A DNA stretch of 51,012 bases from Escherichia phage tonn: the sequence record NC_049815.1, one strand, 5' to 3'. The notes beneath the pieces were generated by a model, which was not told the origin of the DNA, did not search any database, and was given only the letters and a program-made list of their open reading frames with translations. Shown piece after piece: positions 1 through 22,963 of the stretch. How positions within the stretch are numbered: position 1 is the first letter of the stretch; each line of letters opens with the position of its first letter. The position numbers and the translations under genes were made by a program.

Positions 1-666
1 AAATTCTACCGCGCCATCAAGCTTAATTTTTACTGTCATTTCCTCATCTCCTTTGTCATTTAGAACCTCGTCACTATACGGAAAATCTTGCTCGCTATCA
101 AGATTTAATTTAGCAATGCCAGCACGACCACGAAAGACAAGTGCAATGTGATTAACACGGATATTCGTCTGAATGGCGTCAAATTTAACCCAATCAGGAG
201 AATCAGGCTTCCAGTCTTCTTTAAGGTCTTCCTCAAATAAGTAATCACCAGTTTTATTATTACCCCAGCCTGGCTTGTCAATATCAACCGATGTGTAACC
301 AACTGAAATTTCCGCCGCGTCTTTCTTTTTTGCACTCTCAATTGCTCGCTTTGAGTAAATACTTAACGGAACTTCAACGCCAATCCCATTTGGAACACCA
401 GCGCCAGCACAAGAACCAACTACAACCTTTTCGGCGTTTTCTGGCGTTACCGTGACGTGACCAACCGTGACCGGCTTCCCTGCAAAGGTGGCGAGCGAGT
501 CGGCCTTGAATACTTCTGACGCAGGGCGAAATTCTCGGCGCTCACCGAAAGGAGTCTGATAGACTTGTAAACCAATTCGCGCCACGATAGGGCGATCAAC
601 TAAAAACCCGTTATCATCAAAGTGCGCCTTTACTTTGGCGCTATCAAATCTTTGTTTTGCCTTCAT
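1..666 (-). CDS. putative head maturation protease/scaffold-type head assembly protein, 5' part (ORF runs off the window start)
   Basis: ATG at 666-664 followed by 222 sense codons with no stop down to position 1 (own manual translation); directly downstream of the head morphogenesis gene; frame-continuous with 50581..51012 if window ends are joined. Confidence 0.4.
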   Translation of the reverse strand, partial: MKAKQRFDSAKVKAHFDDNGFLVDRPIVARIGLQVYQTPFGERREFRPASEVFKADSLATFAGKPVTVGHVTVTPENAEKVVVGSCAGAGVPNGIGVEVPLSIYSKRAIESAKKKDAAEISVGYTSVDIDKPGWGNNKTGDYLFEEDLKEDWKPDSPDWVKFDAIQTNIRVNHIALVFRGRAGIAKLNLDSEQDFPYSDEVLNDKGDEEMTVKIKLDGAVEF

Positions 667-17835: not shown

Positions 17836-19416
17836 ATGTTTTCATTAGAAACGAACAAATTAACTCCACAACAAATAATCGCTATGGCTGAAAGCCAGAA
17901 CCTTTCGCCAGTTCGCGTATCAATTCAGGCTAACGGCTATCGCCAGTCGTCCAGCTTTTGGGGCGACGTAAAGGATGTGAATAGCGGTCACGATCGCTAC
18001 CCCGTTATTTCTCTTGGTAATGATATTGATGTTGTCGGCAAGTTATCACGCAGCATTGCGCGATCCGTTCAATTCCCTGAATCATCGGCTTACATGCACT
18101 TTATCGGCTGCATTTCTGCCGCTATGCTTGGACGCTTTACGGTTGACTATCACGGAACCGATCAGCCGACTGCGCTTTACGTCGTTACAAGCCAGCCGCC
18201 GTCAACTGGTAAATCTGCGATCAACAGCATGGCTATTGCTCCGATGATTGCGGAAGTTGAGAAGATCAACGAGCAACGCCGCAAGGAAAGAAAGAAAATA
18301 CAGGCAAAGCTGGCAGGTCTTGCAAAGGAGATGAAAAGCGAAAGATCCGGCGCTGATATGGAATCTCTATACCAGGAAAAAGAGGATCTGGAGGAAAAGC
18401 TGGAAAAAATGTGTGATATAACTTTTCCTGTTTCAGATACAACTCCAGAAGGCTTGGCGAAAATCAACAACAAGCAAGGTAACTTTGCCGTAATATCTGA
18501 TGAAGCAACAAGTATTAACAGTCTGTTAGGCTTGACCTATGCAAATAGCGAAAGGAAGACTAACAGTGAGTTAGTGCTTAAGGCGTGGGATAATGGTCAC
18601 GTATCAATTGCCCGTGCTAATGCTGACAATAATATGAGTTTTCGCGCGCTTGGATGTATGAGCGTCATAGCCCAGGATGAAACGATAAGCGGAATCATGG
18701 ACGCTGGATCGCGAGGCATCGGTGTTAGTGAGCGTTTTTTGTTGGTCCGAGAGGAATCATTCTTAGGCCGTCGCTCATTCATTGATGAAAATGGTGATTC
18801 TACCTATGAGGCGGTGGATTCTGAATTGAAAGCCCAATATTATCAATTGGTGCATAACATCATGAGCGAATCAAATATATCGCTGAAAATAAGCCGTTCA
18901 GCTATGCGAGTGCTCAACATTGCTCGCCAGGATATGGAACCGCATCTTGCAGACGGAGGAAAGTATTCTCATACAATGTTACGCGGTGCGCTGGGTAAAA
19001 TGGATAAACAGGTGATCAGGCTTGCTTCCGTCCTGCATGTTATCCGTAACTGGTTTAATCCTGCCGGATACCCGCAGAAGTCGAAAGAGATCGACGTGGA
19101 AACAATGCAAGAGGCGTTGATCATGTTTCAGGAATTGAGCAAAACATACATTAGCGCCGCCAATGCTTCTGGTTATGCTGGTGATGATGCTGAAATGGGT
19201 AAATTGATTGAATTGATCACGAGGCACGGCAAGGCTAATAAAGGGATTCTGAATATCCGCGCCCTGTACGAATCAGCGAGAAAGGTAAAACCTTTCGTTG
19301 GTCAGGCTGGCGTAATGAAAAGGATAGAAGGGCACTTACTGCCAATGCTGGAAGAAAGAAATTATGTTTGTGTGATTAATGGTGTTATTTTTGTCAATCC
19401 AATACTGCTGGGATGA
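17836..19416 (+). CDS. P-loop NTPase of unknown function (526 aa)
   Basis: Walker A-like SQPPSTGKSA (~res 120), charged coiled-coil-like insert, Walker B-like FAVISDEATS (~res 215); AAGGAG RBS. Confidence 0.6.
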   Translation: MFSLETNKLTPQQIIAMAESQNLSPVRVSIQANGYRQSSSFWGDVKDVNSGHDRYPVISLGNDIDVVGKLSRSIARSVQFPESSAYMHFIGCISAAMLGRFTVDYHGTDQPTALYVVTSQPPSTGKSAINSMAIAPMIAEVEKINEQRRKERKKIQAKLAGLAKEMKSERSGADMESLYQEKEDLEEKLEKMCDITFPVSDTTPEGLAKINNKQGNFAVISDEATSINSLLGLTYANSERKTNSELVLKAWDNGHVSIARANADNNMSFRALGCMSVIAQDETISGIMDAGSRGIGVSERFLLVREESFLGRRSFIDENGDSTYEAVDSELKAQYYQLVHNIMSESNISLKISRSAMRVLNIARQDMEPHLADGGKYSHTMLRGALGKMDKQVIRLASVLHVIRNWFNPAGYPQKSKEIDVETMQEALIMFQELSKTYISAANASGYAGDDAEMGKLIELITRHGKANKGILNIRALYESARKVKPFVGQAGVMKRIEGHLLPMLEERNYVCVINGVIFVNPILLG

Positions 19417-19808
19417 TTATGTTTTTGCTTGATCTGTATAAATGGTGTGAGTCATACGATTGGTTTAACAGGCAGCACATAGCCAAATTTATCTATCAGC
19501 ATAGAGAATGTGAGCGGCTCGCACGGGCCGCCGGACTTACGCCGCGAATGTTCGCCAGCCTTGCATCTAAGGAATTTTGCGCAAGAATGATGACGGCTGG
19601 TTATATAGATGGAGTCTGCGGAAAATACTGGTCCAAAGGATCGTCAAAGCGGCCTTTCGGATTCGAATTGTATAGCCTGGATGGTATGCGCAACGACTGG
19701 ATCAGGGATATAGCTAGAATAGGGGAGATGGGCGATGATGAATTGTTCCAGGCAAAAGCTAATAGACAAGATCTTGAAGCACTGCGCCGTAAATTCAATA
19801 TCACATGA
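19413..19808 (+). CDS. hypothetical protein
   Basis: 131 aa; ATGA overlap with NTPase gene. Confidence 0.5.
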   Translation: MIMFLLDLYKWCESYDWFNRQHIAKFIYQHRECERLARAAGLTPRMFASLASKEFCARMMTAGYIDGVCGKYWSKGSSKRPFGFELYSLDGMRNDWIRDIARIGEMGDDELFQAKANRQDLEALRRKFNIT

Positions 19809-19929
19809 TGATTTTATTCATGCTTTACTTACGCTACTTTATTCAGATATGCGAGCTTTTAGCACCACTGAACACGTTTTATGCAATGATGATGGTGTGT
19901 TATTGGTTACAGTAAAGCGTATGGAATAG
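19735..19929 (+). CDS. hypothetical small protein (overlaps 19413..19808 out of frame; start uncertain)
   Basis: ends with the TAG inside a motif copy. Confidence 0.3.
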   Translation: MMNCSRQKLIDKILKHCAVNSISHDDFIHALLTLLYSDMRAFSTTEHVLCNDDGVLLVTVKRME

Positions 19930-20006: not shown

Positions 20007-20231
20007 ATGTCCAGCAAGTTTTTAGTAGTTCGCGTATACAATCATGCAAATGGATCTTCTTCTGAAATTCCGACAGTTTACGATAAGGATTCAGGCTGGA
20101 GTGAGCAATCGGCGGTTGAAAATGAGCGCAAGATTGCAGAAATGTACGGCGACACTTGCAGCATTGAAGTAAGGCAGTACGACGAATCGAACAAGCCAAC
20201 AAACGAAACTCATATGTGGCCCGACGCATAA
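20007..20231 (+). CDS. hypothetical protein
   Basis: start moved to ATG 20007 (listed start lies inside the promoter cassette). Confidence 0.5.
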   Translation: MSSKFLVVRVYNHANGSSSEIPTVYDKDSGWSEQSAVENERKIAEMYGDTCSIEVRQYDESNKPTNETHMWPDA

Positions 20232-20265
20232 AAATAAAGGAGGCATTAAGCCTCCTTTTTCTTTT
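20231..20265. terminator. bidirectional rho-independent terminator between convergent genes
   Basis: stem GGAGGC/GCCTCC with A-run before and T-run after. Confidence 0.6.
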
Positions 20266-20641
20266 CTCTCCAGTAAAGACAAATCAGCACAAGAAACACA
20301 ACAACGCATATGATTACTGGATCGTACCATCTGCCGTTATTACCCTGCACGACCTGAATTTTGTCTGCCTTGATGGTATTGGCCTGAATGGTTGATGTTG
20401 TGAAATCCTTCTTGCTGGACGTGTCCACCTTGTCAACCGCAGATTCCTTTATTGTGGTTTCCTGTTTTGTGCTGGCGTCCTGCTTTGCTGTAATGCCAAC
20501 TGTCTGCTTCACGTTCTCCGCTCCAGCCTGTGCTGTGATTTCCGGCTTACTGCCGATTAATCCGGTCAGTGGCGTAACGCTTGAACATCCAGACAAGATC
20601 ACCGCCATTGCGATTGGTGTAAGTAAAAAATTCTTCATCAT
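20246..20641 (-). CDS. unimolecular spanin (T1 gp11-like)
   Basis: 131 aa; N-terminal lipoprotein signal (AVILSGC) plus C-terminal TM helix ([16 protein letters not shown]); ATGA overlap with endolysin gene. Confidence 0.7.
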
Positions 20642-21129
20642 TTCAGATCCATTGTGCAATATTTGTATTCGACCTTGCGCCTGTTAAGTAAGCCTTTAGA
20701 CTTCTCGCGCTTTCCTGTTTTTGGGTTATGGTAATAAGTCCAACGATAAAGCTGATCGCAAGCCTCGTTTAATTTCCCCTGGTTGATGAGTTTCAGCATT
20801 GTTGAATTTCTGAAAGCTCCCACACCTGCATTGTAAGTGAATGAGTACATTGCTGCACGCATACTATCAGGAATATCAACCTTAACTTGCTTGTCAACTT
20901 CCTTTTTAGCAACCTGGATATGCTTAGCCAACAAAGCATCACACTCTTTTTTAGTGTACGTTTTCCCCAGGATAACATCTGGTCCGGTGATTCCTGCGCA
21001 AACCGTCCATACTCCAGCAATATCTTTGTATGGCTTGTATCTTACCCCTTCGATCTCTTCAAGAAGTGGAGAAGTCAAGGCAACCGCAACGCCAAAGGCC
21101 GCCGCCGCTACCCTGTTCTTTATGCTCAT
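20638..21129 (-). CDS. SAR endolysin (T4-lysozyme-like muramidase)
   Basis: N-terminal weakly hydrophobic Gly/Ala-rich SAR segment followed by E-x8-D-x5-T catalytic triad. Confidence 0.75.
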
Positions 21130-21344
21130 TACTTGCCCCTGATTTCAATAGCTTTTTGAATATCACCTTTTTCGATCGCCTCGTGGAATTTTTTACTATC
21201 ACGCCAGCGAAGGTAAGCGCCCCATGCACCGAATGCAGCCATTAAAACAAAGCTGGCAATAGCAATGGTTAACTGCCCTGTAGCGGCGCTTGCGATAGAT
21301 GAACCGCCAGATCCAGCGGTAGCTGCGTTAATAAAATCTTTCAT
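21129..21344 (-). CDS. holin (pinholin-like)
   Basis: 71 aa, Gly/Ala/Ser-rich first segment and hydrophobic second helix, charged C-terminus; TAATG coupling to endolysin. Confidence 0.6.
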
Positions 21345-21489
21345 TTTTATTCTCCATATTAATTAAAGTCAATATATTGACCGCATGATAAACGTACATG
21401 GTAAAAAATTAAACAAAAAAAAGAGGCGACAAACGCCGCCCCTTTGCAAGTTTTTGATTTAATTTGTCATTGATTTAAATAAAAATTCA

Positions 21490-22605
21490 TCAATTCATCA
21501 TTTCTGGATAGTGAACAAATCGCCCCACCTCTCCATGCTCTTTGTCGTAAATGATAACCGCCGCACGGCGTCGAGATCGCCAGCCACCGCGCGCGGCGTA
21601 TGCGTCTTTTGCCGCCAGGGTGCTATGCACCTCAACGATGCCAAGCGACGTTTCTGTCACGGTCTGGTGATGCCAGTGCCCTACGTGCGCATACATCGTT
21701 TTTGAGTTTCCGAAGTCCTCCCGCCAATCTGACGCGCACATCATTAGCAAAGCCTCCGGTTTACGCACTGTGTGCCCGTGATGGTACGCAAGGAAAGTTT
21801 TTCCGTATTGCGTGTGGTGCACAACGCGAGGGGAAACATCAACGTAAACGCGCGGCTCGTTTTCATATGCTGCCGCCATTGCTGCGCGTAGCCAAATCAT
21901 TCCTGATTGGTCATGATTGCCCTCTACGATCTGGACTTCAACATGTTTATGCTTTAACAACATTTTATTGATTGCGCGTCGCATTGCACGGATGGCAACG
22001 TAAACCAATTTTGCATATCGACTATCTTGATCCAGTACGTGACCGCTTGCAGGTGTAACCGCCTCCAGGCCGTCGCTATGCAGCATATCGCCACCAATCA
22101 GGATGACAGCCTTTTCGCTATCCGGTGCGCACATTAAAGCATAGTCGATAAAGTTATTCATAACGCGCTCTGCCGTGGCAGTATCCCAATTTTCGCCGCA
22201 TTCGTGCTTATGGGCCATAGCGCCTAAGTGCATGTCAAAGATCGGATACAAGGAAAGCGTTTCGTTATAGTCGCGCTCCTGTAATGGAACCGGATCTAAT
22301 CGCGGCACTTCCTCGCTAAATGCCTCCATTGCTGCGCGCATTAATGCTTCTAATTGCTCTTTATCCTTGCTGGTTTTAGTCCACTTTAGGATTATGTTGC
22401 CTTCTTTGTCAGTCATTACTGACTCACCATGAACGCCAAAACCAGGCGCTCCAATGGTGGATACCTGGCCTTGCTTTGCAAGTCGCGCCGCGCGACGCTC
22501 GACGCTTCTCACATTCATTCCGTACTCTTGAGCGATCTGTTTATATGTCTTACCCGCCGCCCGTTCGATCTTGAATTGCTCATCTGTAATTTTTACATTT
22601 TTCAT
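21490..22605 (-). CDS. calcineurin-like metallophosphoesterase (Mre11/SbcD-like) with N-terminal HTH
   Basis: start at ATG 22605 (MKNVKITDEQ); DMHLG, GDMLHSDG and GNHD motifs. Confidence 0.6.
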   Translation of the reverse strand: MKNVKITDEQFKIERAAGKTYKQIAQEYGMNVRSVERRAARLAKQGQVSTIGAPGFGVHGESVMTDKEGNIILKWTKTSKDKEQLEALMRAAMEAFSEEVPRLDPVPLQERDYNETLSLYPIFDMHLGAMAHKHECGENWDTATAERVMNNFIDYALMCAPDSEKAVILIGGDMLHSDGLEAVTPASGHVLDQDSRYAKLVYVAIRAMRRAINKMLLKHKHVEVQIVEGNHDQSGMIWLRAAMAAAYENEPRVYVDVSPRVVHHTQYGKTFLAYHHGHTVRKPEALLMMCASDWREDFGNSKTMYAHVGHWHHQTVTETSLGIVEVHSTLAAKDAYAARGGWRSRRRAAVIIYDKEHGEVGRFVHYPEMMN

Positions 22606-22699
22606 TCTGCTACCTATCTCATCACTATATGGTACATAACTGTAACAGCGATGATAACTGGTAACGGTAGAACAAACAAGCGCCACATGATAACTATCC

Positions 22700-22963
22700 T
22701 CATTTATAATATTTGCGAGGCTCTCGGATTTTAGCCATTGCCTCTTTGAAATCAATTTTTGTTGGAACTGCTGGAACTCTTACCATTTTTCGCGGCCTTT
22801 CCTTGAGGAAAGTCATCTTATCACCGCTAATTATGCTCACATCTGCAATATCAAAGTATTGCGCGATCTTCTTTATATCGTCTGCTATTCCGCATTCTTT
22901 AGCGTGATTCCATACCGCCTCTCTACCTTGTTCAACCTTCATGCTTATAATATGCCTCCGCAA
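22700..22963 (-). CDS. hypothetical protein
   Basis: 87 aa. Confidence 0.45.
   Translation of the reverse strand: MRRHIISMKVEQGREAVWNHAKECGIADDIKKIAQYFDIADVSIISGDKMTFLKERPRKMVRVPAVPTKIDFKEAMAKIREPRKYYK

Follow-up and report, generated by a model that had tools for sequence, protein, structure and literature searches.

Organization of the locus

The lysis region described here lies on the minus strand of the genome of Escherichia phage tonn (NC_049815.1), which was analysed at its full length of 51,012 nucleotides, hereafter the window. From the open reading frame list and the translations, three consecutive genes, assigned to a holin, a lysozyme and a spanin, were found to occupy positions 20246-21344 (Table 1). 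An earlier reading made from the sequence alone (the sequence-only reading) had described three overlapping minus-strand genes at this place, and the same coordinates, lengths and overlaps were read from the open reading frames of the window. A GGAG sequence precedes the start codon of the holin gene by 7 nt. The stop codon of the holin gene and the ATG of the endolysin gene share one base in a TAATG junction, and the spanin ATG overlaps the endolysin stop codon in an ATGA junction, overlaps that indicate translational coupling across the cassette. A 137-aa form of the spanin reading frame with a TTG start was rejected as a mechanical extension by the ORF lister; the 131-aa form is the one annotated for near-identical phages in GenBank.

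Table 1. Coordinates of the lysis genes of phage tonn, of the segments recognized in their products and of the flanking elements
Feature	Position	Strand	Description and basis
Holin gene	21129-21344	-	71 aa, ATG...TAA; T1 gp13 homologue, putative pinholin
Holin residues 4-23	21276-21335	-	Gly/Ala/Ser/Thr-rich, weakly hydrophobic segment, candidate releasable first helix; conservation, hydropathy
Holin residues 25-45	21210-21272	-	Predicted strongly hydrophobic membrane helix, then charged C-terminal tail; hydropathy
Endolysin gene	20638-21129	-	163 aa; probable SAR-type, T4-lysozyme-like muramidase; homologue of T1 gp12 and phage 21 R21
Endolysin residues 7-23	21061-21111	-	SAR-like segment; aligns with the R21 SAR domain; Kyte-Doolittle 2.01
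Endolysin E27/D36/T42	21004-21051	-	Catalytic triad, E-x8-D-x5-T; aligned with E35/D44/T50 of R21 (phmmer)
Spanin gene	20246-20641	-	131 aa; putative unimolecular spanin; T1 gp11 homologue
Spanin L16-S17-G18-C19	20585-20596	-	Lipobox, then Ser20; read from sequence
Spanin residues 108-124	20270-20320	-	Predicted C-terminal membrane helix, basic tail REKKKEA after it; hydropathy
Intrinsic terminator	20236-20258	both	Bidirectional, overlaps the stop codon of the spanin gene; RNA fold -17.1 kcal/mol, z -4.4
Intrinsic terminator	21420-21445	-	Between exonuclease and holin genes; 11-bp stem, then T run; -17.9 kcal/mol, z -3.9
T1 exonuclease ST16 homologue	21496-22605		Directly upstream of holin; 56% identity; PHROG 704 at 7.5e-149
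T1 ST10 homologue	19416-19763	+	Convergent; 52% identity
T1 helicase ST9 homologue	17836-19413	+	Convergent; 58% identity

The bidirectional terminator at the end of the spanin gene is common to the cassette and to the convergent plus-strand genes. A promoter scan returned two sites, against 3.4 expected from shuffled sequence, and none above chance upstream of the holin gene. Because the count is at chance level, and because the start codon would coincide with the -10 hexamer of the site upstream of the holin gene, no promoter is claimed.

The 1.4 kb around the cassette was found to be 99.0-99.9% identical at the nucleotide level to 18 deposited coliphage genomes, among them those of vB-Eco-KMB46, JLBYU01, tunzivis, swan01 and JK16. 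The first two of these are classified as Drexlerviridae, Tempevirinae, Warwickvirus, and phage tunzivis encodes a 131-aa protein 100% identical to the spanin of the window. Family and pairwise E-values across the three proteins range from 1e-29 to 1e-80, far beyond chance. The proposal that the DNA comes from a T1-like phage is thus upheld by synteny with T1 together with near-identity to Warwickvirus genomes. Overall, the three genes very probably constitute the late lysis cassette, of holin, SAR endolysin and u-spanin, of a T1-like siphophage of the Drexlerviridae, subfamily Tempevirinae, genus Warwickvirus; no result spoke against this reading of the cassette as a unit.

The 131-aa putative spanin

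The product of the last gene was found to match PHROG 1804 'Rz-like spanin' over its full length (E 2.6e-47) and to align, again over its full length, with T1 gp11 at 44% identity (BLASTP, E 6e-38). The defining features of u-spanins and of the T1gp11 family, which include the absence of periplasmic Cys residues, unlike in two-component spanins, have been set out by Kongari and colleagues in a survey (PMC6139136). The same survey also records the experimental finding by which the u-spanin is defined, complementation of lambda Rz/Rz1 by T1 gene 11 (PMC6139136).

The N-terminus of the 131-aa protein contains a basic residue (K3), a hydrophobic stretch and an LSGC motif with Cys19, followed by S20-S21 rather than by Asp; the lipoprotein signal was judged by this motif check and not by a predictor score. 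Under the sorting rule for E. coli lipoproteins, a residue other than Asp after the lipidated Cys directs the protein to the outer membrane. By this rule, the Ser-Ser pair after Cys19 would send the spanin to the outer membrane. At the other end of the chain, residues 108-124 form the most hydrophobic stretch of the protein, with a Kyte-Doolittle value of 3.49 in the 15-residue window 109-123. Cys residues occur only at positions 19, 112 and 121, and since the latter two lie inside the C-terminal helix, none is predicted to be periplasmic. The sequence-only reading had ascribed to this protein both an LSGC lipobox and a C-terminal transmembrane helix, and both were located, the lipobox at residues 16-19 and the hydrophobic segment at 108-124 with a basic tail behind it.

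These signals are shared by the family. Conservation was counted over the best 120 homologues from a large protein collection, in which the lipobox reads L/ISGC in 116/120 and LPGC in 3/120, the remaining sequence being a fragment. The lipobox Cys is followed by Ser in 115 homologues, by Ala in 1 and by Asp in none. A periplasmic Cys is absent from 115 of 116 homologues, the net charge of the tail lies between +1 and +4 in 118/120, and a hydrophobic C-terminal helix is present in all full-length homologues. When 39 homologues are aligned, 25 columns are invariant in the well-conserved periplasmic domain, and the sequences of the signal peptide and of the membrane helix are replaced even among close relatives. 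This replacement of the helix explains why many tblastn matches of the spanin end at residue 103-108, and it fits the published view that the helix acts merely as an anchor (PMC7830690).

In an AlphaFold2 model of the spanin built with the 39 homologues, only the two terminal helices, those of the signal peptide and of the membrane segment, were modelled, the C-terminal one spanning residues 107-129 with pLDDT up to 88. Residues 20-105 of the monomer appeared without secondary structure, at pLDDT 40-50. The periplasmic domain of u-spanins has been predicted in print to consist mainly of beta strands, a prediction that the low-confidence model neither reproduces nor contradicts.

The spanin gene is the last of the cassette, adjoining the endolysin gene and followed by the terminator, which is the same place as in T1. 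A search of the spanin gene for an Rz1-like nested frame returned a single embedded ORF, at 20314-20436 (40 aa), which carries no lipobox.

Several GenBank records label the 131-aa protein only 'lipoprotein' or 'hypothetical protein', and weak matches to other lipoprotein families were seen alongside a weak PHROG match to Cor (E 6.8e-05, residues 2-66). On that footing the protein might have nothing to do with the lysis genes beside it and be some other lipoprotein, such as a superinfection-exclusion protein of the Cor kind. A Cor-like identity was rejected because the weak match is confined to the signal peptide region, whereas the matches that run the full length of the protein are those to the spanin family and to T1 gp11, the latter with the complementation record given above. 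Moreover, the gene is translationally coupled to that of the endolysin, and Cor is not known to have a C-terminal helix in the inner membrane. An unrelated lipoprotein is therefore a vanishingly improbable reading. The identification of the 131-aa protein as a T1 gp11-type unimolecular spanin, already put forward in the sequence-only reading, is supported by gp11 homology, the PHROG match, the predicted topology signals and the last-gene position.

The 163-aa SAR-type endolysin

The second protein was found to match the Pfam family Phage_lysozyme (PF00959, E 3.6e-39) and to align over its full length with T1 gp12 at 66% identity (E 1e-80). Among proteins of known structure, residues 2-159, thus with the N-terminal domain included, align with lysozyme R21 (PDB 3HDE; phmmer, E 4.8e-47), and the same residues align with RrrD, the DLP12 copy (4ZPU; about 1e-46 to 1e-47). 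A lysozyme with an N-terminal SAR-like segment and an E/D/T triad had been proposed, and the alignment to R21 from residue 2 onward, in which the triad is kept, agrees with that description.

Ala and Gly abound in the SAR-like segment, which has K4 and R6 ahead of it and contains no Cys; the Cys residues of the protein are found only at positions 44, 63, 124 and 158. Endolysins of the P1 Lyz type are disulfide-caged SAR endolysins with a Cys in the anchor. The anchor of the window endolysin being free of Cys, the protein is predicted to be of the R21 kind and not of the disulfide-caged P1 Lyz kind. Relative to R21, the stretch from the anchor to the catalytic Glu is shorter by six residues (TGPSGN), so that the Glu stands four residues past the end of the anchor. 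With the enzyme tethered, the active site would lie against the membrane.

The hydrophobic stretch comprises only the 17 residues V7-L23, and A15-V16-A17 followed by L18 fits the -3/-1 rule for signal-peptidase cleavage. These two properties would also suit a cleavable Sec signal peptide, in which case the lysozyme would be a soluble periplasmic enzyme under some other control. Cleavage after A17 would leave merely about 8-10 hydrophobic residues ahead of the site. In addition, the alignment with the SAR domain of R21 takes in the entire N-terminus, and R21 is an enzyme that is membrane-tethered after export, is released on depolarisation and then refolds (PMC6139136). The Ala/Gly richness resembles that of known SAR domains, and the Kyte-Doolittle value over 17 residues falls between that of RrrD/R21 (2.29) and that of T1 gp12 (1.68); T1 gp12 and TLS gp68 are themselves classed in print as SAR endolysins (PMC11447400). 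The homology to R21 thus makes a cleaved signal peptide highly unlikely, and the assignment of the 163-aa protein as a SAR endolysin of the R21 type is supported by its sequence relationships.

The 71-aa holin and its topology

The first protein of the cassette was found to match PHROG 2877 'holin' over its full length (E 3.8e-32) and to be 55% identical to T1 gp13, again over its full length (E 4e-29). In a large protein collection, 26 homologues were found, almost all of them 71 aa long and encoded on phage contigs of roughly 50 kb. These homologues carry a precomputed, unnamed Pfam accession (PF27028), which the local Pfam search did not report, and NCBIfam returned no specific model for either the holin or the spanin. 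The partner encoded in the adjacent gene is the R21 homologue with a SAR domain. That the 71-aa protein is a holin serving a SAR endolysin is settled by homology and context.

What kind of holin serves this endolysin? Pinholins are defined as holins that make many small holes, of about 2 nm, which depolarise the membrane and are too small for a folded soluble endolysin (PMC6139136). The holins of the T1 family have been classed in print as pinholins (PMC6139136, PMC11447400, PMC13164509) and described as having two segments (PMC6139136, PMC11447400). The term pinholin in the sequence-only reading agrees with this classification, and for the window holin it is an analogy. The cassettes of the T1gp11 family have been described as a pinholin plus a SAR endolysin (PMC6139136), and likewise those of TLS and of T1/KanT1 (PMC11447400, PMC13164509). 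No relevant experimental study of the T1 holin was found in a search of the literature.

A Gly/Ala-rich first segment had been noted in this protein, and residues 4-23 are indeed rich in Gly, Ala, Ser and Thr; G/A/S/T account for 63% of the first 30 residues. Over 17 residues, the Kyte-Doolittle value is 0.72 for the first segment and 2.03 for the second. In an alignment of 24 sequences, A8, T9, G14, A20 and Q24 are invariant in the region of the first segment, as are F38, G39, G42, A43 and Y44 in the second helix.

Even at E 100, BLASTP gave no alignment of the holin with the DLP12 homologue of the phage 21 pinholin, EssD; no Pfam match to the phage 21 holin family was obtained at E up to 1, and the dual-start motif is absent from the holin. 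Because neither search gave a match, membership of the phage 21 pinholin sequence family was rejected; a functional analogy is possible.

This lack of detectable similarity would also suit a different architecture, in which the holin is a single-pass protein with its N-terminus outside and its C-terminus inside, and in which the Gly/Ser-rich first 24 residues are periplasmic or interfacial instead of forming the first helix of a two-helix, phage-21-type pinholin. Such a holin, though differently built, would likewise depolarise the membrane and set the SAR endolysin free. Only residues 25-45 are clearly hydrophobic, the two segments are about 2-3 residues (TGQ) apart, and the N-terminal tail has a net charge of zero (K2, D3), which would permit its translocation. 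The RefSeq note on T1 gp13 likewise reads 'contains single transmembrane domain'. In the AlphaFold2 model of the holin, a helix at residues 2-10 is followed by a break at GSGGS and then by one continuous helix at 16-58, and no two-helix hairpin is formed; however, the pLDDT is about 50 in the N-terminal region, compared with 73-85 in helix 16-58 around residues 25-45. The weakness of the first segment is matched by EssD, whose first helix scores 0.56-0.68 on the same scale and whose second scores 2.02. Since the first helix of EssD is as weak as the first segment of the holin, low hydrophobicity is to be expected of a releasable helix. The strong conservation of the N-terminal segment, the SAR endolysin as partner and the published two-segment description of T1-family holins also argue against the single-pass architecture, which is possible although rather doubtful. 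A two-helix pinholin is the likelier reading and is favoured with some reservation. If the single-pass architecture were true, the gp13-type holin would represent a second, independent design of depolarising holin for SAR endolysins.

Proposed lysis pathway

By analogy with the studied homologues of phage 21 and T1, the source from which export and tethering, release on depolarisation and fusion of the membranes are all inferred, lysis may proceed in three steps. First, the 163-aa lysozyme would be exported by the host Sec system and would stay tethered by its SAR anchor until release. Second, the 71-aa holin would build up in the inner membrane and trigger at a set time, depolarising the membrane, upon which the anchor would exit the bilayer and the lysozyme would refold to its active form and degrade the peptidoglycan. 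Third, the 131-aa spanin would span both membranes, with the lipid anchor on Cys19 in the outer membrane and the C-terminal helix in the inner membrane; freed from the peptidoglycan mesh, it may collapse or oligomerise, fuse the two membranes and so allow the phage to be released.

Comparison with known systems

The nearest systems are the cassettes of other Warwickvirus genomes, from which that of the window shows essentially no difference besides the labels. In the records of these relatives, the first two genes are named holin and then endolysin or lysozyme, and the names of the third vary among 'putative unimolecular spanin', 'u-spanin', 'Rz-like spanin', 'RzlA', 'lipoprotein' and 'hypothetical protein'. 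The cassette is an ordinary, previously annotated T1-type lysis module, and nothing in it is new. The reservation on the topology of the holin applies to the whole T1 family, and the same classification is already in print. The significance of the present analysis is small beyond consistent names for three genes that go under 'lipoprotein' or 'hypothetical protein' in some near-identical records. The topology of gp13-type holins and the way in which a beta-type single-chain spanin fuses membranes are matters of the T1 family as a whole.

In T1 (Tunavirus, Drexlerviridae), genes 13-12-11 stand in the same order as in the window, with matching product lengths of 71, 162-163 and 131-133 aa. The comparison with T1 gp11-13 suggested by the sequence-only reading gave the identities of 44%, 66% and 55% to gp11, gp12 and gp13, respectively, that are quoted above. 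Both spanins carry an LSGC lipobox, and both genomes have a terminator overlapping the spanin gene at its end, the one of T1 being annotated in its RefSeq record. The wider order is also shared, running from the exonuclease through holin, endolysin and spanin to the convergent helicase operon. The exonuclease gene lies directly upstream of the cassette, and this module has been reported in 508/522 members of the Drexlerviridae (PMC13164509).

The two phages differ in the sequence of the spanin membrane helix and in what surrounds the cassette. Only in T1 are the exonuclease and holin genes separated by the HNH endonuclease gene ST15 and by ST14, which encodes a 58-aa DUF7244/SH3 protein (E 8.8e-29); in the window this interval consists of just 145 non-coding bases. 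No DUF7244 relative was found anywhere in the window (best tblastn E 2.6). A 2026 paper assigns the SH3-like gene to the accessory 'shell' of the lysis module in the Drexlerviridae and reports it in 188/522 genomes, mainly of the Tunavirinae, Braunvirinae and Rogunavirinae (PMC13164509). Given this distribution, its absence from a Tempevirinae genome is unsurprising. Conversely, the interval from the ST10 homologue to the spanin gene contains two small plus-strand genes (19735-19929 and 20007-20231) only in the window.

A further system for comparison is that of phage 21 and DLP12, with the holins S21 68/EssD and the endolysins R21/RrrD. R21 is a true homologue of the window endolysin with the same triad. 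The holin of the window resembles EssD in its length of 71 aa, its weak first and strong second segment and its basic C-terminal tail, but differs from the pinholin of phage 21 and DLP12 in having no detectable sequence kinship to it, virtually no periplasmic loop and no dual-start motif. Finally, DLP12 encodes a nested Rz/Rz1 pair (rzpD/rzoD), whereas the window encodes what is predicted to be a single-protein spanin.

Spanin membrane helix and periplasmic repeat

The periplasmic domain of the 131-aa unimolecular spanin, the homologue of T1 gp11, was found to be about 88–91% identical to that of its close relatives among spanin homologues P0024–P0057 from a large protein collection, whereas the C-terminal membrane helix is very different. 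In one close relative, for example, IIYCAAIFSGLLSMLYFSY was observed in place of the 16-residue stretch of the window protein. With the periplasmic domain kept and the helix divergent even in close relatives, the helix appears, judging from the sequences, to have been swapped between relatives as a module. This difference in the helix also explains the termination of many spanin tblastn matches at residue 103–108.

Upstream of the helix, the spanin contains a stretch with a period of five residues, (I/V)-x-A-x-x, repeated three times. Residues I85, A87, I90 and A92 were found to be invariant across 39 homologues, and the matching position of T1 gp11 reads IQANT-VNAES-ITVTK. The repeat may be part of an element driving spanin collapse or oligomerisation.

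About 20 GenBank records titled "Campylobacter phage", e.g., MG065649.1 (Campylobacter phage A143), carry this coliphage-type lysis cassette, with a spanin about 91% identical to that of the window over residues 7–108. Their stated host is Campylobacter jejuni, for which such a cassette is odd; the records may be contaminated or mislabelled.

Features in and around the lysis cassette
Feature	Position in window	Strand	Details
Small gene	19735–19929	+	64 aa; PHROG 9539 (listed as unknown function)
Small gene	20007–20231	+	74 aa; PHROG 27210 (listed as unknown function)
Spanin C-terminal membrane helix	20270–20320		residues 108–124
Spanin five-residue-period stretch	20345–20389		residues 85–99
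Non-coding gap, exonuclease/holin	21345–21489		145 bases, terminator inside
Exonuclease frame	21490–22755	-	421 aa, if extended to TTG at 22755

Holin family and flanking genes

Precomputed Pfam accession PF27028 is present on all 26 holin homologues (P0121–P0146). This accession was not reported for the window holin with the local Pfam copy, the sole match being a weak one to DUF3262, below the cut-off.

Homology of the exonuclease to T1 ST16 begins only at 22605, and the products annotated in relatives are shorter (371–398 aa) than the fully extended frame. The N-terminal part gave weak helix-turn-helix matches, to Sigma70_r4_2 and HTH_23 (E about 0.002–0.007).

The spanin gene is separated from the homologue of T1 ST10 by the two small plus-strand genes, both of which converge on a terminator shared with the spanin. 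Near-identical GenBank records label this stretch inconsistently, as a plus-strand gene in JLBYU01 but a minus-strand ORF in KMB46. Unlike the window, T1 has no counterpart of either gene at this position.

No DUF7244 relative was found in the whole window, where only non-coding bases separate the exonuclease and holin genes. In T1, by contrast, this gap holds an HNH endonuclease gene and the DUF7244/SH3 gene, the latter recently proposed to encode an accessory lysis factor (PMC13164509).
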